From the UHGV virus genome UHGV-0095852: DNA of 28,110 nt. One strand, 5' to 3'. Origin of the DNA: a virus. The position numbers and the translations under genes were made by a program. The notes under the pieces were generated by a model. The model saw nothing but the letters and a program-made list of their open reading frames with translations, did not search any database and was not told the origin of the DNA. Below, one piece after another: positions 4,081 to 28,110 of the stretch (its first letter is position 1; every line of letters begins with the position of its first letter).

Positions 4081-7000
4081 TTAGGCCGCATCGGCGATTA
4101 TTTTACGCAGTTCATCTACCGAGTAACGAGTAGATACCATCCACGCCGGACGGTCAAAGTTCACATCAGCAACCGGGTTTGCTTCAAAATTCCAGAAACG
4201 CCCGCCAATCTTCTTAATCGCGTCTTTGGCGTTCCGTATTGTCGAGGAACCTGGCTGGTCGGCAATGAGATAAACCGCGCCAACGTCTTCGCTGACGCTC
4301 CACCAGCGCCCGCGAACACGCGCCTTAGCGCGAATCGGCTTATCATTAACCACAATGATATAGTCATCATTCGCCGCTTCATCAGCTCTGGCTTCAGCCA
4401 CTGCCGCCTGCTCTTCTCTTTTGCTTTCAGCCTGCTCAAGCCTTTCCGCGATCTCTGATTCAGTGGCCCCGCCGTTTTTCAGCGATACATAGTCCTGCCA
4501 CGTTGCCGATTTGAGCGCATCCGGCAACTCATTCACATAGTCGCCGTCTTTCAACTCACGGGCGCGACGGGTGGCCATTTCTACCAGGCGATTAACAGAA
4601 ACAGCATCAGCAAAATCGTCCTTACTAATGTGTTTTTCATCAAATGCATTGATGACAGCCCCCACCTTAATCCACTGCGCTGCTGGCGAATCCAGAGGAT
4701 TATCGGCCTGAACAATGGCTAATTTCGCTCCATCGACACCATTATTAGCCAGCTGCTCCAATGCCGACCAGCCATCGGCATCGCTGAGTGATTTATATTG
4801 CTCAAACAATGCATCGCGCCAGGCCACCAGCGCAGCTCGTGTTTTCTCAATTTTCGCCGTAATTTTCGCGGCCTTCACCTGATTAAACATCCGTTCAATG
4901 TCATCAGTGTTGCTAAAGGCTTTCATCCTGCCCTGGAATAAACGGTATGCCACCACGGTCTTCCAGAAAGATTCCAGCCCTTCTCCGGACGGTTTACGGA
5001 ACAGGCTAAGAATATCTTCAGAAGTAACTTTATTAAGTGAGCGACCGGACAAACCACGCCCTGCCATCCAGTTTTCAAACTCCTGGGAAACATCATCCAT
5101 CGTGGCCTGTGACCCCCATGCCTGCATTCCCTGGATGTAATCATATCCATACAATGCCTGGAGGAATCCCTCGCCGTCCACGACATTCAGCGGGTTATCA
5201 CTGGCTTGTATTTTTGCCACTTCACGCTTCAGCGCCTCGTCGTTGCCATCAGGATATATCCATCGCTCAGGTGCTATATCCGATGCTCGCCCGATTTTTT
5301 GGCCTATCACGCCATCATAGGTCGATGACAGCGCGATCTGACCATCATCTGTGCGATAAGCCCAGTATTTAATAGCTGAACCACCGCCCCATACTCTACC
5401 AGGCTTCCCGGCAGTGACATTCATTACCCCATTGCGAATAGCATCATAGAACTGATCGCGCGTAAGTGTTGTTGATAGCTGGTGGCATTGAACACCACGT
5501 GCAGCTGTTTCACGCGATTCTGCAACTCCCTCTTCAAAGGTTACCGATTCAATTATCAGGTTAAAGGGCAAAAATAATGCCGTCCCCGGAGAACGAGAGT
5601 AACGACTAGCCACATCCAGCCAGGATATGCGGCACGTACACCCGCCCCTTTCCGCATCAATGGCGGTAACACGAACAATTGCTGTCGTATTGTGATTCTC
5701 ATCGATGATCGCGCGATAATGGCTGCCCTTGTGCAACAAGATATTTTTCTCAGTGCGTACATACTCCTGTGGGTTCTGCAATACATCGGCATCAAGCTCC
5801 AGAACCCCGGCTTTAATCGCACGTTCCAGATCACCACGAGAACGTTTCATAACGGTGTCAGCGTCTTTAGCTCTGGTGATCGCAAAGCGTAGCTCCCGCA
5901 CACGTTTTCTGTAGTCTCGCAACTGTTCCAGAACATATTTCTGCCCGTTCCTGTTCGTCCCCGCTTTAATCAGGTCGTCAAGATTGCGCTGGTAATGCTC
6001 TACCTGCTCCATCGCGCTTTTCAGTTCTGTCTCCATCATGCCGATATCTTTCCCGGCAGCATTCGCCGCTTTCAGGTAGTTATCGAGAGCATTATTGGCT
6101 TCGCGTAGGGCTTTCAGTTTCAGACGTTCTTCACGCTCTTGCGCCTGACGACTCATGATTGCACGGCGTTCTTCCGGATTTGCCGCCAGCATAATGGCGC
6201 GTTCATCTGCGTCATCCGCATCACCATTGGCGATCTCTGACATGTCTGAGGTCATCACCATATTGATCCAGTCCTTCTTACGTTTCAGCGTATCCAGACG
6301 GAAGTCATCAAATGTGCCTTTGCCACAATAGTAGTGAACATTGACCTTTTCTTGTGGTGAGCCTACCCGAGCGCCGCGCCCATTACGTTGGTCGATACTG
6401 GCAGGAGTCCAGGGTAGTGTCAGATGGTGGATATCGGTTGTACCGATGTGCAAGTTAATACCTACTTCAGCCTTCTTGTTACAGATTATGATGCGCGTGC
6501 GACCTTCGTTATAGTCGGCGGCAATACCTTCCATGCCCTCAAGGCCAGCATCATTTTTAGCTGAGAGATAATCCTCATATTGGGCAAGTTTGCTGTAGTA
6601 GGTTTCCCATGCACCTTCTTTGTATTCACCGTTTTTATTTGGCGTAGGTTCAGTCGGCTTATTCACCTTCTTCAGCTTGACGCCGCCAGCCTGGCTAACT
6701 GTCGTCGCATTGATAATGCCTATCTCCTGCTCCGGCATTTGCAGTGCACTGGCAATAATACGGCGCAGCTTCTGGTGCTGGGCTTTTTCATCAATGAAGA
6801 CGATTTGTTTACCGTTCTTCAGACCTTCACGAAGGTTTTCGATCAGCGCGGCATACTTCGGCGGGATGGGGTGTGATACCTGCTGCATATCAATACCGGC
6901 AGCCGCAATGGCCTTCAGTATTTCAGCTTCCAGTTCAATGCCAGCACGTATTTCAACATGCGACGGATGTTCGCTAAAGGTGGTCTTCACTACCTTGCTG

Positions 7001-10000
7001 GTACGCGTACTGACCAGCCCACCAGCGCCATCTTCTTCGGCCTCGTCTGCATCATCTGCCACTTTACCGCCAGCTACTTTTGGCAGGGCATCAGCAATAG
7101 CTTTTACCTTGTCTGCAAGCTCAACGGGGAACTGGAATGTAATCGCACTGGCATACAGATCAGGATCTATAGCAACCTTATCCATGTCGCGGATGATGGA
7201 GAAGATGAAATCATCCGGTTTTTCGTTTGTGATATGCCCGTTTTCATCGACCGTCAGCGCATCTTTACTACTTAACTCCTGTGCACGCTTACGAAGTTCT
7301 TCGTAAATGGCCTCTTGCTCTCCTGTCATCGGGATCTGCAAGGTATTCTCGACAATATCAGGGATTTTTACCGTCGCCCCGACGTCCGCAGCAGTCTTCA
7401 GAGTAGTCCAGCGATGGAAAATACCACGCAGACCATCCAGGTTCTGGAAGCCCACCAGTCCCTGCTTCTCTTCCACCTCACCGGAAATTTTCTGAACCTG
7501 AACTGTGGCTGTTTTACCGAACACGCGAACGAAATCATCCGGCGTAACAATACCCATGCGCATCCACTCTTCCTGCGGAATGACAGTAGACAGCATGTTG
7601 AAAGCATCAATCGGGCTGTTCACCAGCGGTGTTGCCGTCAGCATAACCACACCACGCCCGTTGTTGCGTTTCATCATGTACGCAGCTTTTACAGCCATGT
7701 CGCGGGCCATTTTGGATACTGCCGGGTTAGGCAAATATGCCAGTTGCCCCGCTTCGCGCCCGGCGCTAAAGGAGTTGCGGTAGTTATGTCCTTCGTCGGC
7801 AATTACGCTATCGAAGTTCATATCCTCAAAGTACGGGATATTCTGCTTCTTCGTTGTACCGGTATTTGCGGCCTGGTCCTTAATCTTGTTCTTCTTCTGC
7901 GCGTCACGGTGTTTGCCAGATGCCAGGTCAAGACGCCCCATTTCCACAGCATTAAAGACCGCTTGCTGTGAGTTTTCCTCAATGGTTTCTTCTCGTAGCG
8001 GGATAGACGCGAATTGCTCTTTTGTCATGATGACCGTTCGCCAATTTGACGACGGGATCATGTTCATGCGCTGAACGATAACGGCGCTGGCGGACTCTTT
8101 CACAACATTTCGGGTAAGAGGCTGCCCGTTACTGTCGAGGCGTGGTTCGCCATTTTCATCAAGCACCGGCGCGGTCAGAATATTTCCGCTGTCATCACGA
8201 ACTTCATCCAGACCGATAAACATCATATTGGCGAAGGCATCAGCACTGTAGAAGCTCTGTGCCTCGTGATACCAGTTCTGATAAACCGCCTTCGGAACAA
8301 CAATACACGTGCGTTTAGTGCGACCTGTTTCGAAGTTATACGCCTCAAGCGCAAGCGCGGTCGTGGTTTTACCCAGCCCGGTACCAAATCCCATGATGCC
8401 GCGCCCATCTTCTGACAAGCGCCGAACTTCTTCATTCTGATAAGTCAGAGGAATGCGCTTCCCACTAATCCCCTCCAGGCCAAGCGGTGCGTCAGAATGC
8501 GTAAACGGGATGAAGCCATTAAATGCGTCGTTATAGTCGCGGGCTATCTGATCAGCCTGCGGGTGAGTGCGTAACCAGTCGTTGAAGCTAATTTCCAGTT
8601 GAGCAATCTTATCCAGGTACTCGTTAGCGTTCTGCCCACGCGGTTTAATGCCGTTCAGGTAGTTTTCTAACTGGTTCAGGAAGCCGTCTTTATTGTTGGC
8701 CTTCTTGAACTCATTCCCGTTTTTGCCGTTTACGGTTCGTAGTTGATAGCCAGTAAATACCCCGTCCTTACCTTCGTAATCGTCCGGAGATACCAGAATG
8801 CCGTCCTCAACCTTAAGGTCGGGTTCTGTATACTTAAACTCGTCATAGCCCTGCTCTGCCAGGAACTCTTTTATCAAGCGGCGATCCAGCCAGCGGGCGT
8901 TCAGATTAACGGTGACTTTATTTAGTGGCGTGAAAATGCGTTTCTCTTCGATTTTCGCCAACTGACGCTCAAAGTTCGCTTTCTGCTCACCTGTTGACGC
9001 ATCACGCCAGCCCACCAGCAATGCTGTTTTGGTTGCAATATCGCCGCTGGTGGCGCGGTCCATCGGCAGCAGGCAGCCATACCCATCAATAGCGATATCA
9101 TCAAATTTCGCCAGGTATTCCAGAGCAGCATCGTCGTCTCCTGGCAGTTCGCCAGCAAACGCCTCACGAAAATCGTCCAGTGTGATTGGATTAAGTGCCA
9201 CGTCACTGAAAAGGTGGGTTACAACTTGTTCCGGGCGTGTAAAGTCAATACCGGCAGCACCATCCGTTACATCAAGTCGTCCAGCAAGGAGGTCAGAAGC
9301 AGAGCCGTCCTGTTTCACGTTGCCAGTGAAAGTCATCCAGTTTTTAGCGCCAGCTTCAGCAATCCCATTCAGCTTAATCGCGTGCGGCGGACCATACTTC
9401 GCAATTTCGGCTTCCGCCAGGCGCGCGGCATCAGCAAGTTCATCATCAACATTTTCCCCCAGATTACGCTTATCAAGCGCCTTGTTGATCAACTGCCCTA
9501 TCAGTGCGCCGCGCATAACGCGTTCTCTGTCTTTTTCTCTCTGCTTGCCAGCAAAGCGAATCATTGCCGCTACTTCATCACTGATAACCGACGGATAGTC
9601 GGACGCGATCGCCGATATCTGGTCCCATGACAACGCCAGAATGCCATTTGTTGACTGAAACGCGATCTGCAGATCACCAAACGTCGTAACACCATATCGA
9701 TTTACATCAAGAGCGGAGGATTTGGTTGTCGCGTCCTTGACCCATTTCAGGCCATCAAACTCATGCCAGATGCCGCCTACAAGGCGTTTATCGCCCACTT
9801 TCGCGCCCTGCCATGCCTGAGTAGTTACGCCAAGCAAATCCCAATTAATGCGGCTTTCAAAGCGGCGCGATAGAGCGGTTTTCATCGACTCATTGGATAC
9901 ACGACCGTCCTTTTTCACCACCAGGGTATTGCGGAAGCTGGTACGCTCCATATCGCCGTAAACAAATCGCTTCCCTTCGGTTGTAAACCATTTCCCTTTG

Positions 10001-10920
10001 AGGAAGGTATCCCAAAGGACGTTTGCCGACTTGAGCGTTGCATCATCCGTGTCGGGGATCATCTCCAGGAAGGTTTCCGGGTGTTTACGCAATACCCATA
10101 CGTCCACCACTGTATCTGTACCGGATTCGCTGAACGTACCAGAAGGCATACGATGTGCGCCCAAAAATTCCGCTTTACGGCTGACTTTATCGCGCAATTT
10201 TTTGTATTTCGTACCATCGGTCATGCCATTCGGCACCACCAATACAATTAGTCCACCAGGCTTAACCTTGTCGATCGTGCGCAGCACAAAGTAATTGCCA
10301 ACGTTCTTCTCGTTTGCATATGCCGGATCAAGCCCGGCAACGCCGGAACGCCCTTCACCAAACGGTACGTTACCAACAGCGTGGTCATACATTGCGTCTT
10401 TCGCCGCCAGCGCCTCAAACGCCCCGATATTCACATCGTCTTCCGGGTGCAAAAGCTGGTTTATTCGACCGGAAATCGGAGATAGTTCGGCGCTGGTCAT
10501 TATCATGCCCTGCCGTTTTGTCTCCTGGAAAATACCTGTGCCCGCTGATGGTTCCAGTACGTGCCCGCCATCAATACCGTAGTCAGCAAACAGATCCCAT
10601 ATACCTTCAGCCATAAACTGTGGTGTGTAGTATTCGTATTGGCTGCCCTCACCATCTGTCAGGCCGCCTTCACCGGTATACCCGGCAAGAATCTGACGTT
10701 GTTCGTCAGTTAATTTCGCCCCATCGAAGCCGGGCGGAAGGGAATTAAGAAGCTCTACTGCGGCGTTGTTTGCTGCCCGCCGTGTTTTTTGAATGCTGAC
10801 ACCATCGACTTTCTTAACGCCAAAGGTCGCAACAGCACGTAATTTATGCAACCGACTAACAATTTCAATCAGTTCGCCTAAGCTGGAGGCTTCACTGATT
10901 GAATGAAGTAGTTTATCCAA
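4081..10920 (-). CDS. darB: DarB-like antirestriction protein: N-terminal N6-adenine methyltransferase domain fused to SF2 helicase
   Basis: 2279-aa ORF; MTase motif I LEPSAGTGIF and motif IV GNVPFG; Walker A GFGTGLGKTT; DEGH box VIADEGH; helicase motif VI QRNGRGARVG; GAGGGGG RBS. Confidence 0.9.
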   Translation of the reverse strand: MDKLLHSISEASSLGELIEIVSRLHKLRAVATFGVKKVDGVSIQKTRRAANNAAVELLNSLPPGFDGAKLTDEQRQILAGYTGEGGLTDGEGSQYEYYTPQFMAEGIWDLFADYGIDGGHVLEPSAGTGIFQETKRQGMIMTSAELSPISGRINQLLHPEDDVNIGAFEALAAKDAMYDHAVGNVPFGEGRSGVAGLDPAYANEKNVGNYFVLRTIDKVKPGGLIVLVVPNGMTDGTKYKKLRDKVSRKAEFLGAHRMPSGTFSESGTDTVVDVWVLRKHPETFLEMIPDTDDATLKSANVLWDTFLKGKWFTTEGKRFVYGDMERTSFRNTLVVKKDGRVSNESMKTALSRRFESRINWDLLGVTTQAWQGAKVGDKRLVGGIWHEFDGLKWVKDATTKSSALDVNRYGVTTFGDLQIAFQSTNGILALSWDQISAIASDYPSVISDEVAAMIRFAGKQREKDRERVMRGALIGQLINKALDKRNLGENVDDELADAARLAEAEIAKYGPPHAIKLNGIAEAGAKNWMTFTGNVKQDGSASDLLAGRLDVTDGAAGIDFTRPEQVVTHLFSDVALNPITLDDFREAFAGELPGDDDAALEYLAKFDDIAIDGYGCLLPMDRATSGDIATKTALLVGWRDASTGEQKANFERQLAKIEEKRIFTPLNKVTVNLNARWLDRRLIKEFLAEQGYDEFKYTEPDLKVEDGILVSPDDYEGKDGVFTGYQLRTVNGKNGNEFKKANNKDGFLNQLENYLNGIKPRGQNANEYLDKIAQLEISFNDWLRTHPQADQIARDYNDAFNGFIPFTHSDAPLGLEGISGKRIPLTYQNEEVRRLSEDGRGIMGFGTGLGKTTTALALEAYNFETGRTKRTCIVVPKAVYQNWYHEAQSFYSADAFANMMFIGLDEVRDDSGNILTAPVLDENGEPRLDSNGQPLTRNVVKESASAVIVQRMNMIPSSNWRTVIMTKEQFASIPLREETIEENSQQAVFNAVEMGRLDLASGKHRDAQKKNKIKDQAANTGTTKKQNIPYFEDMNFDSVIADEGHNYRNSFSAGREAGQLAYLPNPAVSKMARDMAVKAAYMMKRNNGRGVVMLTATPLVNSPIDAFNMLSTVIPQEEWMRMGIVTPDDFVRVFGKTATVQVQKISGEVEEKQGLVGFQNLDGLRGIFHRWTTLKTAADVGATVKIPDIVENTLQIPMTGEQEAIYEELRKRAQELSSKDALTVDENGHITNEKPDDFIFSIIRDMDKVAIDPDLYASAITFQFPVELADKVKAIADALPKVAGGKVADDADEAEEDGAGGLVSTRTSKVVKTTFSEHPSHVEIRAGIELEAEILKAIAAAGIDMQQVSHPIPPKYAALIENLREGLKNGKQIVFIDEKAQHQKLRRIIASALQMPEQEIGIINATTVSQAGGVKLKKVNKPTEPTPNKNGEYKEGAWETYYSKLAQYEDYLSAKNDAGLEGMEGIAADYNEGRTRIIICNKKAEVGINLHIGTTDIHHLTLPWTPASIDQRNGRGARVGSPQEKVNVHYYCGKGTFDDFRLDTLKRKKDWINMVMTSDMSEIANGDADDADERAIMLAANPEERRAIMSRQAQEREERLKLKALREANNALDNYLKAANAAGKDIGMMETELKSAMEQVEHYQRNLDDLIKAGTNRNGQKYVLEQLRDYRKRVRELRFAITRAKDADTVMKRSRGDLERAIKAGVLELDADVLQNPQEYVRTEKNILLHKGSHYRAIIDENHNTTAIVRVTAIDAERGGCTCRISWLDVASRYSRSPGTALFLPFNLIIESVTFEEGVAESRETAARGVQCHQLSTTLTRDQFYDAIRNGVMNVTAGKPGRVWGGGSAIKYWAYRTDDGQIALSSTYDGVIGQKIGRASDIAPERWIYPDGNDEALKREVAKIQASDNPLNVVDGEGFLQALYGYDYIQGMQAWGSQATMDDVSQEFENWMAGRGLSGRSLNKVTSEDILSLFRKPSGEGLESFWKTVVAYRLFQGRMKAFSNTDDIERMFNQVKAAKITAKIEKTRAALVAWRDALFEQYKSLSDADGWSALEQLANNGVDGAKLAIVQADNPLDSPAAQWIKVGAVINAFDEKHISKDDFADAVSVNRLVEMATRRARELKDGDYVNELPDALKSATWQDYVSLKNGGATESEIAERLEQAESKREEQAAVAEARADEAANDDYIIVVNDKPIRAKARVRGRWWSVSEDVGAVYLIADQPGSSTIRNAKDAIKKIGGRFWNFEANPVADVNFDRPAWMVSTRYSVDELRKIIADAA

Positions 10921-12717: not shown

Positions 12718-13046
12718 AGTTACGGCCTCACTAACAGGTTTAACAACCTGCTACCCGCTGTCAAACAGGTGGCAGGACGTGACAGGGTTGACAGACTGGC
12801 GTTAGTGAAACCAGCAGGCCTAAGCCTCCCCATCACGCCCCACCATAATTCGGGCGTAACGCGGTTTACGGACACAAAAATACCGCAATATCGGAAATCT
12901 GCGGTTGTCCGCACTAACATTCAGGCTGTCAAACCTGGTCGCAGAATTTGCTACGACGGCATGAATATAAGCCTGAAAACATGGAAGATCAACTAAAAAT
13001 TTCAGCAATGGATGACTTCAGTCGATGATGCAGATCATACATTCCG

Positions 13047-13080
13047 ATTTAGAAACAGCAAATTAATTTTCTAATACAAA
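13047..13080 (+). promoter_or_regulatory. operator-like motif, copy 5, composite dyad (ATTTAGAAA ... TTTTCTAAT)
   Basis: Two inverted half-sites 12 bp apart, upstream of the immunity-like operon. Confidence 0.4.
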
Positions 13081-13130
13081 TCATCGAGAGAACATTTTCC
13101 GATCATTGGGATGTTTTGTAGACACACAGG

Positions 13131-14093
13131 TCATCCCCTAAATCCCGCAGGGATTGACCAATCCTCCCGGTCAAATTCAGACCGATAGCCACGCTGTTTC
13201 ATCAGGTCAAAGGCTTCACCAATGGTTGCACACCCCTGGGAGCCAGAATAATCCATTGAGAAATCCAGGGCACTGGATTGTTTAGGCTTATTCACTGCGG
13301 TAGCGGCACTACGTATCCATGCAAATTTTTTTGCCAGCTTTTCAGCGGTACGATACAGAGCCTGCCGTTTTGCGTGCCCCTCGTCTGAACGACGCTTTGC
13401 AGCTCTCGCTTTTGCCGCCGCCAGGCAGTGGTTGGTATGTTCTTCCCTGATTACTGGTTTTTTATCCAGTAATCCATTATCCGCTTGGGAACTATCTGCT
13501 GGTGAAGCCTTTGGCTGAACCGCGCATGATCTTTCTCTTCTTTTGGCTATAGAGTGACTCTTATTTTCTATTGGCTGTTCATTTTGAACATGGGGGGACT
13601 TGTTCAATTTGAACAGGGGGTTCCCAGTTTCAAAAAAATACCGAACCTTTGAAATCAACTGCTTAACCAGTTTTGTGGCGTTCGCAAATTTGATGCCCTG
13701 CTTACCCCCTATCTCCATTGCTACATGAATGAAGTGGAGAAATTGTGTTGTAAACCGGTATACGTTACACACCTGAGCATTGTTATTCGCTACCTGATGT
13801 TGCTTAACAAGCATTCCGCACTTCGTCGCTTCAGCAAATGCCCGGCGCACAGTAGAAATACTGCGTCCTGTAATCTCGGACATATCAGCATATGAGCGAC
13901 GGATCATGTATTCATCGGTAGCTCCTGCCAGGTTGGCGAACTCGGCAATAATGGCGCTATGTGAAGGGGAAAGAAAACCGCTATGACGAGCAAAAAAACT
14001 CAACTGATGACCTTTGATTTTTTTGTGGTATTCAGTGTTGTTTTTATACTCAGAAGTGTTGAAAGTTACTGAAACTGAATTTAAAATACTCAT
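13131..14093 (-). CDS. hypothetical HTH protein, 320 aa; possible RepL-like lytic replication protein with internal origin-like repeats
   Basis: HTH-like segment ISTVRRAFAEATKCGMLV; dense direct and inverted repeats inside the coding sequence at 13509-13656. Confidence 0.55.
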   Translation of the reverse strand: MSILNSVSVTFNTSEYKNNTEYHKKIKGHQLSFFARHSGFLSPSHSAIIAEFANLAGATDEYMIRRSYADMSEITGRSISTVRRAFAEATKCGMLVKQHQVANNNAQVCNVYRFTTQFLHFIHVAMEIGGKQGIKFANATKLVKQLISKVRYFFETGNPLFKLNKSPHVQNEQPIENKSHSIAKRRERSCAVQPKASPADSSQADNGLLDKKPVIREEHTNHCLAAAKARAAKRRSDEGHAKRQALYRTAEKLAKKFAWIRSAATAVNKPKQSSALDFSMDYSGSQGCATIGEAFDLMKQRGYRSEFDREDWSIPAGFRG

Positions 14094-17783: not shown

Positions 17784-18077
17784 TCAATTCACATCAATGT
17801 CTTGATATGATTCGCCAGTATCGTCTTCGTCGTCAGGATCTCCTTCCACCTCTGGCCACTCAACCTCCCAGCCAACAGTTTCCAGGCTCCGCAGAACAAA
17901 CACCCCATCGGCATGAATGGTATTCACGATCCCCATTGCGGAATTTGTGTTGATAAAGCGTATATCTTGCGCAATATTTTCTTCCGAAATATCGCCTTCA
18001 AATATACGCAATGTGCCGTCATCAGAGCATTCAACAATCCCTCTAATCCCAGCGGGACTCACAATGCTATACTTCAT
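17784..18077 (-). CDS. hypothetical acidic protein, 97 aa, last gene of the operon
   Basis: ATG with AAGGAG RBS at 7 nt; highly acidic C-terminus. Confidence 0.55.
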   Translation of the reverse strand: MKYSIVSPAGIRGIVECSDDGTLRIFEGDISEENIAQDIRFINTNSAMGIVNTIHADGVFVLRSLETVGWEVEWPEVEGDPDDEDDTGESYQDIDVN

Positions 18078-21000
18078 TTTGCAACTCCTTCATACATCCC
18101 AAGAAAAATTCCAGCACGCCGTCATTGTTTAATACAGAGTTAGTCGCCTGCTCCGGATCGGCATACATCTGCAAGGCCATAGAAAAAATCTCAGTCGCCC
18201 TGCAATTGCTTAATGCAGGTGGCTTTGATATAAATCTGCCGCTGACAGAACTTACCGTATTTTCCATATAAATTTTAGACATATATCCATGACTTAGGTC
18301 GGTTCGCACCAAATACTCAGCACTGCCACGGCTACCAATATTATGATAAGAAACTTTACCGTTAGTTTTTGATTTAATGAAGGCTTTGGCCCTCTCCAAT
18401 AGATGGGGATTTGAATGTTCTATATGGTGACCTATTTCATGCCATAATACACGCTCGTGATCACTATTAGCATCAATTGTTATATTCCCATTTCGACTTG
18501 CAAAAGCACGAACATTGTTCTCGTGGTTAATATTTTTTAATGTAGATAAAGTCCCTCCTGAAATAATATAGGCTTTTTCAATCGTCTCGCGAATACTGTA
18601 TGCTTTACGGGAGAAAGTTTCATTATCGTGACCACTTAACTGCTCTGCTTCATCAGAAATAGCAATCCCACGACTCCATTCCTTAGACTGGTCATGTGAC
18701 ACATTTGACGATTCAAGAATCATGTCAAATGCGGCTCTGACTTTTTTATGTACTACATTTTCAAGCGCATTAGGATAGGCTTTTTGTCCACGTGTTAATG
18801 AAGCTATTTCATATAGTTCTGCTTGCAAGTCTTCCGGTATGTCCAGATTAAAAACAAGCATTTTTTTCAGATCATATCCAATCCCATGATCATTCTGGTG
18901 CAAAACCTCAGCAAGGTAGTCAGTGAGTTTTTCCTTATTTGACCTAACGTTATTGATTTGTTCTATAGTAAAGTCAACACGCTCCTTGATTCCGTAATAT
19001 GAGGAATGCTCTGCTAATTCCACTATCTCCTTAAGCCTGACAAGTGTCTCAATATACGCATCAGCGATCTCCTCTGCCGTTAGTTCAGAGCTAACTCCGA
19101 CACTGGCTGTTATTTTCCTACCAGCCGCCATAATATCGTCGATATTATGCAAGCTCTTTTTGAATAACTTCAAAGTATTTTGGATTATGCGCACCATCTC
19201 TTCTGCGCTTCCAGCTTTATTCATTTCCTTTCTAAATCTTAAAGCTGTTTTCTCTGCAATAGACGCTGGAGATTTTAAATAGTTACCTAACCAAACAAGA
19301 CAACCATTGCGCAATTCATCAATGCTAAAGTCATCAGGAATATGTTTTGCTGCATTATGTAAAACACGTATAAATTGTTCAGCGGGCACGCCTTCTTCTG
19401 ATATGTTGCAAAACGTTTCAATATCACAATCAATATTTCTTTCATCTGCGAGCGAAGGAGCTTCATCTCCTTTTTCAATCGCGTCACGCAGTGCGTTAGC
19501 ATAAAAATTGCTGCGTTGATAAGACAATAACATCGTTGTTAACACAGCGTCGCTGTATCCATAACGTTTAGCCCACTCCTTAATCTCATTAACGGTGACA
19601 TTGCGAATATAAAAACCAAGTTCCAAAAATACATTGCGCTTTATTTTTTTTGCGGACTCCTTAATTTTTTCTGACACCTTCACGATTCGGATCAAGTCCT
19701 CCACGCTGGTCGCATCAGCAATTAGCTTTGAAATGTATGGTTCGACATCTCCTGAAACCGATTCAAACATGGCGAAATTAAGCCCTTTACCTTCGCCATA
19801 CTCAGCCTCAATTTCATCAGAAACGGCAGATAAAATGCTACGCAGATCGACATCTCCGCCGCCGAACATATCGCCTAACGCTTGTTGCTGGTGAATAAGT
19901 TCATCGTTAATTTTTTGCGCCAGTTTCTTGAAAGCTGCCCCCATTCGCTTAGCGCTTCGGTTGTTGGCAACAATAAACAGAGCAAGCGCTTCTGCTTCCG
20001 GAGTGCTATCTCCAAACAATCCACGCTGTGCGATCACCTCTTCTACTGCCTGACCGTTATCTTTTGCTTCACGAACAAGGTTAATTGCTTCCTGTAGCGC
20101 GGCAATAGCCTGTTTATCCAGACTATTCAATTGCTCTATACCGTCTACCAGTCCGGTTACCGTGTCATGGTGAACATCACCTGAAAGCGACTGCATTTGC
20201 GCAAAATCGCTGGCTGCCGTATTTAATGCGGTAAGGATGTTACGCATTTCCGGATCTGGCTCTTCCGCCACCAGCCGAACAAGCCTTTCATCCTTGTACG
20301 CTTTGGCAAAAATTGCATTCTGGATGCGGTCGATAAGTTGTTTCGTTGGACGCCCATCGGCAGTAAGCAAACCTGCCGTCGCCGTATCACCTATTTCGCG
20401 CAAAAACGCACGAATAAACGCATCATTGGACCGCGCCAGTAGATTTCCATCATCTGAAGGATTAAATAGCGCCATGACGCTCTCAGTGAGAAATTGCGCA
20501 TCCGCATACGCTTTTTCACTTGCAGCCATCTCTTGCAGATCGCTGATGTTTGAATCGCGGGCAAATTGTGCGCGGTCTACATCTGTGAGTCTTTCTCGCA
20601 CCAGTACGGGCATAGACATTTGTGAAATGTCGTCAGGATTCAGACCAAACTCTTTTGCATGATCGATCAGGTACTGGCGATATTCATCCGCCTGCCCTTG
20701 CTCATAGGCACGCCAGATACCCATGCTCCTTCCGTTGCCGGATTCAACAACGTTGTCCGGACCAACTATCGGCGCTCCGTGGCTGCTCATGCCGGAATCC
20801 GTTAATTGTGCCGGGCGTAAATTGGAGGCAATACGGTTAACCTGGAGTTTGCTGGATAGCCGTGTACGGTCACGTGGCTGGAGTTCTTCCGGGAAGGCCG
20901 GATTAATCGTACCGTCAAGGTTGTTCGAAATGATCAGACTGCTGGCATCAACGACCTTAAAAGCCGTCTTTACCTCTGCCCCTTTACTGGTGACTACGTA

Positions 21001-21108
21001 ACTACTGCGCCCCTGGCGTGTTTCTCGCCTCTCTAATGAAGAAACCAGCTCAATAACACTGTTAATGTCTGCTGCTTCGGATAGCGCGGAAGTAACTGAC
21101 TTGTTCAA
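18067..21108 (-). CDS. DdrB-like large internal head protein (by synteny) with a C-terminal HExxH motif
   Basis: 1013-aa ORF, TTG start with AAGGGGAG RBS; HEIGH encoded at 18427-18441. Confidence 0.75.
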   Translation of the reverse strand: MNKSVTSALSEAADINSVIELVSSLERRETRQGRSSYVVTSKGAEVKTAFKVVDASSLIISNNLDGTINPAFPEELQPRDRTRLSSKLQVNRIASNLRPAQLTDSGMSSHGAPIVGPDNVVESGNGRSMGIWRAYEQGQADEYRQYLIDHAKEFGLNPDDISQMSMPVLVRERLTDVDRAQFARDSNISDLQEMAASEKAYADAQFLTESVMALFNPSDDGNLLARSNDAFIRAFLREIGDTATAGLLTADGRPTKQLIDRIQNAIFAKAYKDERLVRLVAEEPDPEMRNILTALNTAASDFAQMQSLSGDVHHDTVTGLVDGIEQLNSLDKQAIAALQEAINLVREAKDNGQAVEEVIAQRGLFGDSTPEAEALALFIVANNRSAKRMGAAFKKLAQKINDELIHQQQALGDMFGGGDVDLRSILSAVSDEIEAEYGEGKGLNFAMFESVSGDVEPYISKLIADATSVEDLIRIVKVSEKIKESAKKIKRNVFLELGFYIRNVTVNEIKEWAKRYGYSDAVLTTMLLSYQRSNFYANALRDAIEKGDEAPSLADERNIDCDIETFCNISEEGVPAEQFIRVLHNAAKHIPDDFSIDELRNGCLVWLGNYLKSPASIAEKTALRFRKEMNKAGSAEEMVRIIQNTLKLFKKSLHNIDDIMAAGRKITASVGVSSELTAEEIADAYIETLVRLKEIVELAEHSSYYGIKERVDFTIEQINNVRSNKEKLTDYLAEVLHQNDHGIGYDLKKMLVFNLDIPEDLQAELYEIASLTRGQKAYPNALENVVHKKVRAAFDMILESSNVSHDQSKEWSRGIAISDEAEQLSGHDNETFSRKAYSIRETIEKAYIISGGTLSTLKNINHENNVRAFASRNGNITIDANSDHERVLWHEIGHHIEHSNPHLLERAKAFIKSKTNGKVSYHNIGSRGSAEYLVRTDLSHGYMSKIYMENTVSSVSGRFISKPPALSNCRATEIFSMALQMYADPEQATNSVLNNDGVLEFFLGCMKELQNEV

Positions 21109-24556: not shown

Positions 24557-24882
24557 TATTTCTCTCCACCTTTTCCCCCATTCGCTATTACGCTTAAGAG
24601 ATTCAAGACGTTACTAGCTCTGGACTTCAAGCCCTGTAAAATTTCACTACCGTTGTTACTGGCAATCAGAACAACGCAGAAAATGATACCTTCAGGCCAT
24701 TCTTGGCTAACCGCCACCCCATACCCCGCAAGCCCGGCTGTTACCGCAGTAAACAATTCACTCGCAAGATTGAGCAGGGACGCAGAAATGCGCCCGTCTC
24801 TAACTCCGAGAAGGAATACGCCGGTTCCACTTAGTAGGGATGTTATGACTACTACAGCCAGATTTTCATAATCTGCAAACAT
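24556..24882 (-). CDS. holin-like small membrane protein (LydA-like, by synteny)
   Basis: 108 aa with several hydrophobic stretches; GGAGG RBS. Confidence 0.5.
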   Translation of the reverse strand: MFADYENLAVVVITSLLSGTGVFLLGVRDGRISASLLNLASELFTAVTAGLAGYGVAVSQEWPEGIIFCVVLIASNNGSEILQGLKSRASNVLNLLSVIANGGKGGEK

Positions 24883-24985
24883 ACCCCTCCAGAAATAACA
24901 TCTAATGCGCCACTAACTTAGTCAGTTTGTTATTTCCTTACAGGACATCTTCTAGAATCGTATCCTTAGCATACAAGGGAGACAT

Positions 24986-25270
24986 ATGCTTATTGGATAC
25001 ATTCGCATTTCAACAAATGACCAAAACACCGCTTTGCAACGCCCCCCTTGAAAGCGCAGGATGTGAGCTAATTTTTGAGGGCAAAGCGAGTGGCAAAAAG
25101 GCTGAACGCCAAGGGTTAAAAAAGGTTCTGCGTATGTTTTCCAGAGATGAAGCCTTGGTCGTATAGCAGTTAGAGCGGCTTGAGGGCAATTTAGTTGTGC
25201 TGCTGTAATCGCTGCGTGCCAGATGAATAAACCTTCTGAATCCCACTAATTCTATCGACATCTGTACACC
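24986..25270 (+). pseudogene. degenerate serine invertase (Hin/Gin/Cin family) remnant
   Basis: Starts MLIGYIRISTNDQNTALQR then shifts frame at a C-run; a second frame continues with CELIFEGK ... VV; W codon replaced by TAG at 25164-25166; later SIDICTPMQR matches SIDTSTPMGR of the intact invertase. Confidence 0.6.
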
Positions 25271-25418
25271 AATGCAGCGCTCACGATGCAATTAAGATCA
25301 ACATTACAGGGATGGTTTTCATTAGTGGTCGGTCCGACACAAGATGCATCGAATTGATGCGCCGCGCGATAAGTGTATCTATTCCCTCGAGATAAACTAC
25401 ATCGACGCGGCATTTGTA

Positions 25419-25991
25419 TTACAACTCAGTTTGAGTTTGGCGCTTCTCTACAGGGTGATAACGATAAATCGTCGATACACCGATATCGTAAATAATTGCC
25501 AACTGTTTCCTGCTGTAGCCATTTTCGATCAACCTCGCTATTTGCTCATGTTGTTCTTTTGTCAACTTCGGGCGACGTCCGCCAATGCGTCCCTGTTCGC
25601 GTGCAGCTGCCAGTCCAGCCAGGGTTCTCTCAACAATTAATTCACGTTCCATTTCTGCTAAAGCCCCCATGACGTGAAAAAAGAAACGCCCCATGGGTGT
25701 TGAGGTGTCAATGCTGTCTGTCAGACTACGGAAATTAACACCTTTTTCCCGCAGCTCCTCAATAAGCGTGATCAGGTGTTTCATACTTCTGCCAAGCCTG
25801 TCCAGCTTCCAGACAACCAGCGTATCTCCTTCTGATAACGTTCTGAGCAGCTTTTTCAATCCTGGTCTGGCTGACTTTGTTCCGCTGATTTTATCTTCAA
25901 AAATTAGTTCACATCCTGCGCAGTTCAGTGCATTTCTTTGTAAATCTGTGTTTTGGTCATTTGTTGACACACGAATGTAGCCAATTTGCAT
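25419..25991 (-). CDS. serine DNA invertase, Hin/Gin/Cin/Pin/Min family
   Basis: MQIGYIRVSTNDQNTDLQRNAL resolvase N-terminal domain with catalytic Ser, C-terminal HTH; start set at ATG 25991 (GAGG 9 nt upstream) rather than 26000. Confidence 0.92.
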   Translation of the reverse strand: MQIGYIRVSTNDQNTDLQRNALNCAGCELIFEDKISGTKSARPGLKKLLRTLSEGDTLVVWKLDRLGRSMKHLITLIEELREKGVNFRSLTDSIDTSTPMGRFFFHVMGALAEMERELIVERTLAGLAAAREQGRIGGRRPKLTKEQHEQIARLIENGYSRKQLAIIYDIGVSTIYRYHPVEKRQTQTEL

Positions 25992-26045
25992 GAAAAACAT
26001 CCTCTTTGTTTAGTTAAAAATACATAGTTGGTATAGGTAGGGATT

Positions 26046-26071
26046 AAGACTAAAACGTTGGTTTGGGGGAA
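26046..26071 (+). other. 26-bp recombination crossover-type site 1 (minus-strand reading TTCCCCCAAACC AA CGTTTTAGTCTT)
   Basis: Half-site ending in AAACC, 2-bp core, degenerate right half; 55 bp from the invertase start. Confidence 0.55.
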
Positions 26072-26491
26072 GGCTCGGCGCTGCCCGTTGGTGTGCCTGT
26101 TCCGTGGCCCTCAGCCACGCCGCCAACGGGGTGGCTGAAATGTAACGGAGCAGCATTTTCTTCTGAAAAGTACCCAAATCTGGCAAAGGTTTACCCCACT
26201 AATAAATTGCCGGATTTACGGGGAGAATTTATTCGCGGTTGGGATGATGGGCGCGGGATTGATGCGGGACGTACCCTGCTTTCAGGGCAGGATGGTACAA
26301 GTTTTTCTCATTACGGAGGTAATTTCGACATTGGGTCTGGTCATTCAATCAATAACTATGACCAAATTGTTTCTAACCAACCAGGATTTTCCCGTTTTTC
26401 ATTTGCAGGGCCTTCACGAGGTGATGGGGTTAATTATGTAACCATTCGTCCTCGTAACATTGCGTTTAATTATATCGTAAGGGCGGCATGA
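26063..26491 (+). CDS. tail fibre C-terminal variable cassette 1 (promoterless gene segment)
   Basis: Conserved start GEGSALPVGVPVPWPSATPPTGWLKCNG, unique middle, conserved end RPRNIAFNYIVRAA; no ATG or RBS of its own. Confidence 0.7.
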   Translation: MGEGSALPVGVPVPWPSATPPTGWLKCNGAAFSSEKYPNLAKVYPTNKLPDLRGEFIRGWDDGRGIDAGRTLLSGQDGTSFSHYGGNFDIGSGHSINNYDQIVSNQPGFSRFSFAGPSRGDGVNYVTIRPRNIAFNYIVRAA

Positions 26492-26510
26492 AAACGTTGG
26501 TTTAGGGGAA
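26485..26510 (+). other. 26-bp recombination crossover-type site 2 (minus-strand reading TTCCCCTAAACC AA CGTTTTCATGCC)
   Basis: Same structure as site 1, at the junction between cassette 1 and cassette 2. Confidence 0.55.
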
Positions 26511-26930
26511 GGCTCTGCATTGCCCGTTGGTGTACCTGTTCCGTGGCCCTCAGCCACACCGCCAACGGGGTGGCTGAAATGTAACGGAGCAGCATTTTCT
26601 TCTGAAAAATACCCAAATCTGGCAAAGGTTTACCCCACTAATAAATTGCCGGATCTACGGGGCGAATTTATTCGAGGTTGGGATGATGGACGAGGTGTGG
26701 ACAATGGGCGAGCATTATTAAGCAGCCAAGAGGCTACAAACTTTTCTCAGCGTGCCGGAAATATAGGCGATGGTGCGGGGCACGCAATTAATTTTCATGA
26801 TGGCATCGTCGGAAATCAGCCAGGATTTTCACGATTTAATTTCACCAGTAACTCTGTAGGTGATGGTATAAATTTTGTTGCTGTCAGGCCGCGAAATATC
26901 GCATTTAATTACATCGTAAGGGCGGCATAA
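26499..26930 (+). CDS. tail fibre C-terminal variable cassette 2 (promoterless gene segment)
   Basis: Frame open from the crossover site (GRHENVGLGEGSALPVG ...); same conserved ends as cassette 1, different central part. Confidence 0.7.
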   Translation, partial: GLGEGSALPVGVPVPWPSATPPTGWLKCNGAAFSSEKYPNLAKVYPTNKLPDLRGEFIRGWDDGRGVDNGRALLSSQEATNFSQRAGNIGDGAGHAINFHDGIVGNQPGFSRFNFTSNSVGDGINFVAVRPRNIAFNYIVRAA

Positions 26931-26949
26931 AAACGTTGGTTTAGGAGAA
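26924..26949 (+). other. 26-bp recombination crossover-type site 3 (minus-strand reading TTCTCCTAAACC AA CGTTTTTATGCC)
   Basis: Same structure as sites 1 and 2, at the junction between cassette 2 and cassette 3. Confidence 0.55.
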
Positions 26950-27399
26950 GGCTCGGCGCTGCCCGTTGGTGTACCTGTTCCATGGCCCTCAGCCACACCT
27001 CCAACGGGGTGGCTGAAATGCAATGGTGCAGCATTTTCTTCTGAAAAGTACCCAAATCTGGCAAAGGTTTATCCCACCAATAAATTACCGGATTTACGCG
27101 GTGAGTTTATCCGTGGTTGGGATGATGGGCGAGGTGTGGATGCGGGAAGGGTCATCTTAAGCATACAGGGGTGGTTAACAGGAAGTCATTATCATAATAT
27201 TCGGTCATGGGACGCGTGGGATAACACGGTATTGGTGCCAAATGACAGAGGGGGGGATAGTCTGTTGTCGACAGATAACGCCGTCCAAGAAGGAGCGATT
27301 AATGGTAAATTTACCAGTCAATACAGAACGGAGTTATCTGGGGGGAATGAAACCCGCCCACGTAACATTGCCTTCAATTATATTGTGAGAGCAGCATAA
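26938..27399 (+). CDS. tail fibre C-terminal variable cassette 3 (promoterless gene segment), followed by a tail fibre assembly gene
   Basis: Frame open from site 3 through the stop at 27399; the ORF track shows only the part after the first GTG (27136). Confidence 0.7.
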   Translation, partial: GLGEGSALPVGVPVPWPSATPPTGWLKCNGAAFSSEKYPNLAKVYPTNKLPDLRGEFIRGWDDGRGVDAGRVILSIQGWLTGSHYHNIRSWDAWDNTVLVPNDRGGDSLLSTDNAVQEGAINGKFTSQYRTELSGGNETRPRNIAFNYIVRAA

Positions 27400-28010
27400 T
27401 GGATAATGCGATATTAAATAGCGAACTTATAGCCATACAGGCAGGAAACATTATCGTTTATAACTATGATGGTGGTAATCGGGAATATATTTCTGCATCA
27501 ACTGAATATCTTGCTGTTGGCGTTGGTATTCCGGCAAATTCTTGTTTGGATGCTCCAGGCTCACATAAAGCAGGTTATGCGATTCTCCGTTCAGAGGATT
27601 TAAGTTCATGGGAGTATGTGCCAGATCATCGTGGCGAAACTGTCTATAGCATTGACACTGGGAATCCCGAAGAAATCACGGTGTTGGGTGACTATCCGGA
27701 AAATACAACCACTATCGCCCCGCTAACACCATACGACAAATGGGATGGAGAGAAATGGGTGGTTGATACTGAGGCTCAACATAGTGCAGCTGTAGATGCA
27801 GCAGAAACAAAACGTCAGTCATTGATTGATACTGCGATGGATTCCATTAGTCTGATTCAGTTGAAATTACGGGCTGGACGGAAGTTGACGCAGGCAGAAA
27901 CCACGCAGCTTAACTCCGTGCTAGATTATATAGACGAGCTGAACGCGATGGATTTAACCACGGCACCAGATCTCAACTGGCCTGAAAAACAACTTTCTAC
28001 AGCCAGTTGA
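27399..28010 (+). CDS. tail fibre assembly protein (chaperone)
   Basis: Start overlaps the cassette 3 stop (TAATG); C-terminal TTAPDLNWPEK matches the conserved tail fibre assembly C-terminal motif. Confidence 0.8.
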   Translation: MDNAILNSELIAIQAGNIIVYNYDGGNREYISASTEYLAVGVGIPANSCLDAPGSHKAGYAILRSEDLSSWEYVPDHRGETVYSIDTGNPEEITVLGDYPENTTTIAPLTPYDKWDGEKWVVDTEAQHSAAVDAAETKRQSLIDTAMDSISLIQLKLRAGRKLTQAETTQLNSVLDYIDELNAMDLTTAPDLNWPEKQLSTAS

Positions 28011-28015
28011 TATAA

Positions 28016-28110
28016 TTAATCCGCCCTCACAATATAATTAAATGCAATATTACGAGGGCGGGTTTCTAAGCCAGCAGTACCTAAATTAGCTACGGACTGT
28101 TTATATGTTT
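28016..28110 (-). CDS. 3' end of a tail fibre gene or cassette (partial, 5' end beyond the window)
   Basis: Minus-strand frame open to the window edge and ending GLETRPRNIAFNYIVRAD-stop, the same C-terminal signature as cassettes 1-3. Confidence 0.6.
   Translation of the reverse strand, partial: TYKQSVANLGTAGLETRPRNIAFNYIVRAD
28021..28063. terminator. palindrome CCGCCCTC ... GAGGGCGG between the convergent assembly gene and minus-strand fibre segment; possible bidirectional terminator
   Basis: 8-bp perfect arms read directly; followed by GTTTCT on the plus side. Confidence 0.35.

Follow-up and report, generated by a model that had tools for sequence, protein, structure and literature searches.

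How would tail-fibre gene segments that stand in tandem beside a DNA invertase gene come to be used? The question is raised by the right end of a 28,110-bp metagenome contig, the whole of which we refer to as the window. The contig comes from a D6/P1-like phage-plasmid and from one short-read metagenome assembly with ~5x coverage. All the elements that an initial annotation had described at this end are present (Table 1), including a Hin-family invertase beside three tandem plus-strand segments, which we recover as Resolvase/HTH_7 domains and a three-copy direct repeat. The gene order is holin/LydB (minus strand), cin remnant (plus), invertase (minus) and cassettes, and no tRNA genes were found in the window. 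The evidence described below indicates that the window very probably carries one half, on the invertase side, of a Min-type multiple DNA-inversion system, with the contig ending within the inversion region, 95 nt into the fourth cassette.

Table 1. Features of the invertase and cassette locus, with positions in the window.
Feature	Position	Strand	Description
cin-type invertase pseudogene (remnant)	24987..25281	+	5' ~300 nt only; frameshifts and stop codons
Intact serine DNA invertase, Min/Pin type	25419..25991	-	190 aa; transcription directed away from cassettes
Putative recombinational enhancer	25902..25973	-	Within 5' end of invertase gene; Fis-dependent in Cin, Gin and Hin
Crossover site 1	26046..26071	+	AAGACTAAAACG-TT-GGTTTGGGGGAA; invertase-proximal
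Cassette 1 (C1)	26057..26491	+	144 codons from core codon, plus stop; silent here; Collar domain
Crossover site 2	26485..26510	+	GGCATGAAAACG-TT-GGTTTAGGGGAA; overlaps C1 stop codon
Cassette 2 (C2)	26496..26930	+	144 codons plus stop; silent here; Collar domain
Crossover site 3	26924..26949	+	GGCATAAAAACG-TT-GGTTTAGGAGAA
Cassette 3 (C3)	26935..27399	+	154 codons plus stop; silent here; Collar domain
Tail fibre assembly (chaperone) gene tfa	27399..28010	+	203 aa; only tfa of locus; Pfam Caudo_TAP 4.7e-30
Cassette 4 (C4), 3' end	28016..28110	-	Last 30 codons plus stop; convergent with tfa; cut by contig end

The invertase open reading frame (ORF; 25419-26000, minus strand) matches Pfam Resolvase (2e-51) and HTH_7 (3.5e-15), and its YIRVSTNDQ motif includes Ser9, as expected for a small serine recombinase with an N-terminal catalytic domain and a C-terminal HTH. 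Translation likely starts at the ATG at 25991, which would give the same 190-aa length as in database proteins of 99% identity. The protein is identical at 189 of 190 positions to Q05517_ECOLX, an early UniProt entry whose protein occurs on at least 1000 contigs; Q05517 had no match in a literature search. With 81% identity to e14 PinE and 74% identity to P1 Cin, the protein is, judged from its sequence, a member of the Hin/Gin/Cin/Pin/Min (Din) family. NCBIfam gave the invertase no specific name, with only sub-threshold matches to other serine recombinases, and no match for the cassettes or tfa. The neighbouring cin remnant is 79–84% identical to cin of P1 and D6; aligned to P1 cin, it has 2-nt and 7-nt deletions and in-frame stops, and it retains a stretch homologous to the P1 cin enhancer. 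The putative enhancer in the intact invertase gene matches the annotated P1 cin enhancer in position (cin nt 19–90), with 84.5% identity over 71 ungapped nt.

A crossover site of Din type, AAAACG-TT-GGTTTrGGrGAA, is present in the window in three exact copies. Its 20-nt motif AAAACGTTGGTTTRGGRGAA has exactly three matches, all on the plus strand with 0 mismatches; as a control for chance, 100 shuffles contained no match even with three mismatches allowed. The sites are 26 bp long with a 2-bp core and GGTTT/AAACC arms, and they fit the crossover consensus of 26 bp in the literature as well as the type of site used by Phi2 in E. coli EC958 (PMC4134206). As is usual, conservation is strong in the half on the coding side, whereas the opposite half is degenerate; the left half of site 1 is identical in 26 instances among relatives. 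The three sites are direct repeats only, and no inverted partner is present up to the contig end. In a search for the right flank, a two-anchor pattern across the C1-C2 junction had no match in viral_contigs, and an exact-protein look-up led back to the contig itself (ERZ1303445 NODE_626), which the window covers in full. An inverted partner site was found in all fetched relatives that keep the fibre gene, and the number of sites per relative ranges from 3 to 9.

C1–C3 form a three-copy direct repeat with spacings of 439 and 439 nt. As the initial annotation had noted, each frame opens at a crossover-type site just past an in-frame stop, either 1 codon (C1) or 5 codons after it, and none has a start signal of its own; the start codon is unconserved, being TTG in C2 and CTG in C1 and C3. 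Pfam detects a Phage Tail Collar domain in all three cassettes, and in a profile search C3 also weakly matches a short-tail-fibre receptor-binding domain. The conserved 5' block and the common end both proved to be real: the first 66 codons are identical in protein at 66 of 66 positions, and a 43-nt 3' repeat encodes the C-terminus RPRNIAFNYIVRAA in C1–C3. Since the DNA of the 5' blocks is only 90–93% identical, all differences between them are synonymous, indicating that the cassette frames are under purifying selection and hence are used. The middles had been said to differ completely; this does not hold for C1 and C2, which are homologues with 56% identity, the remaining pairs being 23–30% identical. 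The C3 stop codon overlaps the tfa start (TAATG). A fourth segment does end on the minus strand at 28016, as described, with a C-terminus of RAD and not RAA; this C4 tail (28016-28110, minus strand), detected through inverted repeats I2–I4, translates to ...ETRPRNIAFNYIVRAD*, and its sequence TYKQSVANLGTAGLETRPRNIAFNYIVRAD is identical to that of a 167-codon cassette in relative L001 and others.

The locus has matches in 1583 of 5426 complete genomes, and hundreds of public E. coli plasmids and prophages carry the same invertase and cassettes. Wherever a fetched relative keeps both invertase and fibre gene, as the nearest backbone relative does, the constant fibre gene is found past the cassettes as seen from the invertase and reads towards them, on the minus strand in window orientation, and it carries the inverted site, supporting the earlier prediction that the constant part lies past the right edge. 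The constant fibre ORF of these relatives has 310–839 open codons 5' of the inverted-orientation site, and the gene order is invertase, cassettes, tfa, cassettes, fibre, R, baseplate. We observed 160 cassette instances of 17 types in the fetched relatives, with up to 9 cassettes stored per locus. All of the C1–C4 types recur elsewhere with 97–100% identity, in other orders and orientations, and cassette sequences form the C-terminus of fibre proteins of 516–965 aa. For each of the four types, some record shows an in-frame fusion with the constant fibre ORF: C1 twice (L001, L004), C2 once among 18 occurrences, C3 in four of 27 instances (among them L005, L007 and L020), and C4 five times (among them L008, L025, L026 and L027).

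Inversion itself can be seen in two isolates from the same patient, Ec-050-T5-ESBL and Ec-050-T20-MAC (L005 and L006), whose 89,996-bp plasmids are 99.98–99.99% identical except for a 1.9-kb inversion. The exchange point falls within TTGGTTTGGG, mapping the crossover to 10 nt around the predicted TT core, and the invertase of these plasmids is identical to that of the window at 189 of 190 positions. Homologous (RecA) recombination was rejected as the cause of this inversion because the recombining sites share only ~14 nt, which is too short. Together with the fusions, these isomers support the Min-like swapping of fibre C-termini among several cassettes that had been proposed from the window. 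Inversions at the same site type have been detected by PacBio sequencing (PMC4134206), and a P1-like plasmid has been reported with a Min-like invertase in reverse orientation that is 98.5% identical to Min (PMC6906374). For this particular molecule we infer switching, because its three sites all point the same way and the contig ends before an inverted partner.

The array could instead be a fossil of past duplications and inversions in an element that no longer switches, for example through loss of the partner site or the fibre gene. The right flank is indeed missing from the contig, and degraded relatives exist: in L027 an IS has removed the invertase and cassettes, the cassettes of L028–L030 are truncated, and P1-like plasmids with crippled switches have been described (Venturini et al., PMC6906374). 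However, the invertase ORF is intact and differs at a single residue from that of plasmids with demonstrated inversion; the three sites are perfect; no cassette frame is interrupted, and the conserved block varies only at synonymous positions; and the relative closest in backbone, with 99.9% identity over 25 kb, keeps a complete fibre operon. We consider a relic very unlikely.

It is extremely unlikely that the order or number of cassettes is a chimera, generated in assembly by the repeated 5' block or a mixture of inversion isomers. Coverage is only ~5x, the contig ends inside the repeat region, and the repeated blocks are 90–93% identical; however, the longest exact stretches common to the blocks are only 50, 44 and 23 nt, the invertase-C1, C2-C3 and C3-tfa-C4 adjacencies are all seen in complete plasmids, and the same contig is on record for four samples. 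Even if the order were wrong, the identity of the locus would be unchanged. A reading of the three segments as separate small genes for 'phage tail protein', each with its own start, in the manner of PGAP-style annotation and of RefSeq records that list separate CDSs of 136–167 aa, has a negligible chance of being correct and was rejected on start-codon, frame and fusion evidence: the start codon varies and no convincing RBS was seen by eye, the frames begin only 1–5 codons upstream of the crossover core, the same sequences end long fibre proteins, and Forde et al. warn of mis-annotation of such fragments (PMC4134206).

The multiple-inversion system that we favour would operate as follows. A tail-fibre gene homologous to P1 gene S would have its constant 5' part just past the contig end, on the minus strand, ending at a 26-bp crossover site, and three promoterless, start-less 3' cassettes lie on the opposite strand, each behind an oppositely oriented site of the same kind. 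Each cassette encodes a Collar domain and ends in the invariant tail RPRNIAFNYIVRAA, and the variable middle between them would bind the receptor. The serine invertase (25419-25991) would pair the site in the fibre gene with any one of the oppositely oriented sites. As with Hin, Gin and Cin, this pairing would probably require Fis, together with an enhancer located 5' within the gene of the invertase itself. Cutting at the central TT would invert the DNA between the paired sites, such that the chosen cassette would join the constant part in frame and the previous one would go into storage. The array would be stable because directly repeated sites are not recombined. The cassettes would be expected to confer different receptor specificities.

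The match to Caudo_TAP supports the earlier assignment of the gene after C3 as a tail fibre assembly gene. After fusion of C1, C2 or C3, this single tfa would lie downstream in the same orientation, and its product would most likely recognise the C-terminal motif common to the cassettes. An identical Tfa protein occurs in ~95-kb phage-plasmids in both orientations relative to flanking genes, and tfa is antisense to the fibre operon when C4 is the expressed cassette (L025–L027, L035). A sigma-70 scan of 24850-28110 for a tfa promoter found none on the plus strand, and a promoter pattern based on P1 LPdar had no match in the region, its matches elsewhere being at chance level. The chaperone part of the model is thus incomplete, given the antisense position of tfa in the C4 state and the negative promoter search. 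It is possible, although we regard it as doubtful, that the invariant C-terminal motif RPRNIAFNYIVRA(A/D) serves all cassettes as a tag on which a single common Tfa chaperone docks. If so, any number of receptor-binding cassettes could be added without an assembly gene of their own, expression of tfa would have to be independent of the orientation of the fibre operon, given its antisense position in the common C4 state, and the locus would have a modular 'plug-in' architecture, a step past the Sv-U pairs of P1, Mu and e14.

That invertases can exchange the tips of tail fibres has been textbook knowledge since Mu, P1, e14 and p15B. The p15B ("Min") system was reportedly first described around 1990, in E. 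coli 15T-, with work by Sandmeier, Iida, Arber and colleagues in 1990–1992. Like the window locus, it resides on a P1-related phage-plasmid, has more than two crossover sites and swaps fibre 3' ends by inversion; its invertase gene is likewise opposite to P1 cin and beside a cin 5' remnant and lydA, in an order deduced for p15B from cross-references in the P1 record. The invertase-gene stretch has nearly equal identity to P1 in the two, 84.5% in the window and an annotated 83% for p15B min. Together with the 189/190 match to Q05517_ECOLX, this is indirect evidence that the invertase may be an orthologue of the p15B Min protein (X62121). The p15B system has six mix sites and 240 isomers, whereas the window has three sites with at least one more implied. 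The backbone of the window is D6-like rather than P1/p15B-like, and its cin remnant is longer than that of p15B, reaching ~codon 100, and closer to D6 cin.

The Pin/P-segment of e14 in E. coli K-12 shares with the window an invertase, 81% identical, that is transcribed away from the invertible DNA, a site type with AACG-TT-GGTTT, and homologous fibre fragments and tfa genes. By contrast, e14 has two sites, two cassettes and two tfa genes (tfaP, tfaE), whereas the locus described here has several cassettes per side and one tfa. The P1 Cin/C-segment and the Mu Gin/G-segment work on the same principle, with an invertase of the same family and an enhancer inside the 5' end of its gene, to which the putative enhancer of the window would correspond, and the P1 C-segment likewise sits between the lyd/dar operon and gene S. 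P1 and Mu, however, have two sites and two alternative Sv-U sets, with cin transcribed towards the segment, whereas in the window a Min/Pin-type module has taken the place of the cin-type gene, which survives only as a pseudogene. EC958 Phi2 shares the site pair type, ...ATTACC-TT-GGTTTAGGAGAA and ...AAACG-TT-GGTTTGGGGGAA (PMC4134206). The three-cassette Gin 'shufflon' of Enterobacter FR-phi has been dissected experimentally and, like that of Phi2, its switching was seen by long reads; its three C-terminal isoforms occur at measurable frequencies, and only one uses the receptor FhuA (PMC13418256). Both are chromosomal prophages with two or three cassettes, whereas relatives of the window locus have up to 9. 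Of the initial label 'Min/shufflon-style', only the Min part stands. The R64 shufflon also relies on inversions among several sites to select which of its C-terminal segments a surface adhesin carries, but it does so with the tyrosine recombinase Rci, sfx sites and the pilus gene pilV, as opposed to a serine invertase and a phage fibre gene. We rejected membership of the shufflon family because the sole recombinase is a serine invertase and the sites are of Din type; the likeness is one of analogy.

The system is thus already known, a well-known type of phage host-range switch, and the locus reveals no new biology. Annotation routinely turns silent cassettes of this kind, wrongly, into 'phage tail protein' genes of their own, and assemblies, this contig included, break or turn chimeric at such loci. 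Phage-plasmids and prophages draw on a common pool of at least 17 cassette types with constant ends, which amounts to a ready-made parts list for retargeting P1-like transducing phages.

All of the elements listed in the initial annotation were found at 25.4–28.1 kb. Downstream of the invertase gene, the plus strand carries a three-copy direct repeat with a spacing of 439/439 nt, and a 43-nt repeat that encodes the C-terminus common to the cassettes. We observed three exact copies of AAAACGTTGGTTTRGGRGAA, with zero mismatches and on the plus strand only; the sequence was absent from 100 shuffles, even with up to three mismatches permitted. The cassette frames open 1 or 5 codons upstream of the core codon. 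Cassettes 1, 2 and 3 (144, 144 and 154 codons, respectively) each encode a Phage Tail Collar domain and end in ...RPRNIAFNYIVRAA. They share no conserved start codon: where cassette 2 has TTG, cassettes 1 and 3 have CTG. Over their first 66 codons, all three encode identical protein (66/66), with DNA that is 90–93% identical over 205 nt. Every DNA difference in these codons is synonymous, which is unexpected for decaying fragments and suggests that the silent cassettes are in use. The cassettes had been described as completely different in between; this overstates the divergence of cassettes 1 and 2, which are 56% identical, the remaining pairs being 23–30% identical. A fourth segment had been assigned the same C-terminus, and cassette 4 does share the ending, with one residue different.

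Features of the proposed switching locus and its left flank
Feature	Position	Strand	Details
cin-type gene, dead 5' third	24987–25281	+	Frameshifts and stop codons; between holin gene and invertase
Serine recombinase ORF	25419–26000	−	Pfam Resolvase (2e-51) and HTH_7 (3.5e-15)
Site 1	26046–26071	+	26 bp, central TT; AAAACGTTGGTTTRGGRGAA copy
Site 2	26485–26510	+	26 bp, central TT; AAAACGTTGGTTTRGGRGAA copy
Site 3	26924–26949	+	26 bp, central TT; AAAACGTTGGTTTRGGRGAA copy
Tail fibre assembly gene tfa	27399–28010	+	Caudo_TAP
Cassette 4, 3' end	Last 95 nt of window	−	Ends ...ETRPRNIAFNYIVRAD, then stop

The window is the entire ENA metagenome contig ERZ1303445 NODE_626 (28,110 bp, ~5x coverage), and its right end falls 95 nt into cassette 4, inside the inversion region; therefore, no rightward extension exists for this molecule. 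Inversion regions are usual break points of short-read assemblies, and the assembler probably stopped at repeated or invertible DNA. We compared the locus with ~30 relatives, which lie on complete plasmids, in prophages or on viral contigs. All relatives that have kept the invertase as well as the fibre gene share one architecture: the invertase, 1–8 cassettes, a single tfa, more cassettes in the opposite orientation and, further along, a full-length fibre gene that is read towards the cassettes, followed by R, gp16 and baseplate genes. In these relatives, the fibre gene's constant part lies beyond the cassettes and points towards them, as the initial annotation had predicted. It terminates, after 166–839 open codons, at an oppositely oriented site (TTCTTrATTACC-TT-GGTTT... 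or TTATCCAATACC-TT-GGTTT...). The fetched loci contain 160 cassette instances of 17 types. The types of cassettes 1–4 recur at 97–100% identity, in varying order and on either strand, with two, one, four and five in-frame fusions to the constant part, respectively; the cassette 3-tfa-cassette 4 block is invariant. In some relatives, one cassette is present in two copies: an identical protein (WP_023156927.1) is encoded at 10202–10630 (+) and 12737–13165 (−) of related locus L003, and the WP_085459230.1 cassette is present twice in NZ_CP135715.1 (L035, the nearest backbone relative). These repeats indicate that arrays also expand by duplication, and the long perfect inverted repeats in duplicated arrays could permit homologous inversions. 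At loci L001–L006 and L035, PGAP calls the start-less silent cassettes separate "phage tail protein" CDSs of 136–167 aa, or sometimes labels them pseudogenes "missing N-terminus"; judged from the sequences, the separate calls are a systematic annotation artefact.

Inversion was observed directly between the plasmids of Ec-050-T5-ESBL and Ec-050-T20-MAC, two isolates from one patient. Both plasmids are 89,996 bp and they are 99.98–99.99% identical over the compared 17.6 kb; the sole difference is the inversion of 1.9 kb, from site 2 to the fibre-gene site. The junction sequences map the exchange inside TTGGTTTGGG, bounded by the diagnostic left halves (AAAACG vs ATACC) and a diagnostic position 10 nt onward. 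Homologous recombination was ruled out because the partners have only ~14 nt in common, the cassette on one side being unrelated past the site. The Ec-050 invertase is identical to that of the window at 189/190 positions. These isomers answer, for the family rather than for this contig, the objection that only a single arrangement might exist. We propose that the invertase would bring the fibre-gene site together with any oppositely oriented storage site, with strand exchange at the TT core. Exchange with site 3 would fuse cassette 3, with tfa directly after; exchange with site 2 would fuse cassette 2, followed by untranslated cassette 3 and then tfa; and exchange with site 1 would fuse cassette 1, followed by cassettes 2 and 3 and tfa. 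Hin, Gin and Cin do not recombine directly repeated sites, so the tandem array should be stable.

Over its first 25 kb, the window shares 93.9% identity with phage D6 and 99.9% with E. coli plasmid NZ_CP135715.1. The genes left of the locus (ddrB, ddrA, darA, hdf, lydB, holin) stand in the same order as in P1, whose next elements are cin and the C segment. Within this backbone, the ddrB-ParB family gene (18067–21108, −) encodes 1013 aa, whereas its P1-like counterparts have 995 aa and some D6-like ones (L002, L037) have 454–461 aa. A SNF2-related (DarB-like) ORF of 2279 aa fills 4081–10920 (−); the anti-restriction module differs among these phage-plasmids. The cin remnant is interrupted by TAG and TAA stops and by deletions of 2 nt and 7 nt, and stands head-to-head with the intact Min/Pin-type invertase gene, ~900 nt apart. 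Together, the 5' ends of the two genes make up an inverted repeat of 54 nt with 83% complementarity, and both contain an enhancer-like stretch. Evidently, a Pin/Min-type module took the place of the ancestral cin module, as in p15B. The ~135 nt from the end of the remnant to the 3' end of the invertase gene (25282–25418) have no assigned feature, and may be the junction joining the Min-type module to the D6-like backbone.

The invertase probably starts at 25991, since database homologues are 190 aa long and begin MQIGYIRVS. It is 81% identical to e14 PinE, 74% identical to P1 Cin and identical at 189/190 positions to UniProt Q05517_ECOLX, a sequence found on at least 1000 contigs. A strict shufflon was rejected, as shufflons proper use a tyrosine recombinase and the window enzyme is a serine recombinase. 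At its 5' end, the invertase gene retains sequence homologous to the enhancer annotated in P1 cin; by analogy, the system would need Fis and this enhancer. According to the cross-references in the P1 GenBank record, p15B (X62121) has lydA, the cin 5' remnant and the min gene in the same order as the window, and the enhancer-like stretch in its min gene is 83% identical to that of P1, compared with 84.5% for the window. Based on this gene order, the enhancer-like stretch and the multiple sites, we assign the locus to the Min type, with p15B compared through the P1 record.

A single tfa serves all cassettes, and its ATG overlaps the cassette 3 stop codon (TAATG, 27397–27401), which suggests translational coupling of tfa to cassette 3 only. 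One cassette type alone departs from the common C-terminus (it has 156 codons and ends ...CCFIALGY), and it precedes its own, different tfa (138 aa), supporting the inference that the shared C-terminal motif pairs with the single Tfa. In the state that expresses cassette 4 (loci L008, L025–L027 and L035), tfa is convergent with, and antisense to, the fibre operon. We found no sigma-70-like or P1-late-like plus-strand promoter for tfa; either an unrecognised promoter would drive tfa, or cassette 4 would fold without Tfa.

Overall, the data support the tail-fibre switching proposed in the initial annotation, as a system of a kind already known. EC958 prophage Phi2 has the same site type, with inversion shown by PacBio reads (PMC4134206); a P1-like plasmid carries a Min-like invertase in reverse orientation (PMC6906374); and a Gin-driven fibre "shufflon" with three cassettes and a defined receptor has been dissected (PMC13418256). 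Matches to positions 25300–28110 occurred in 1583/5426 complete E. coli genomes, and each piece of the locus has near-identical counterparts in many public records. Only the design of one chaperone for many cassettes, with tfa antisense in one state, is mildly new.
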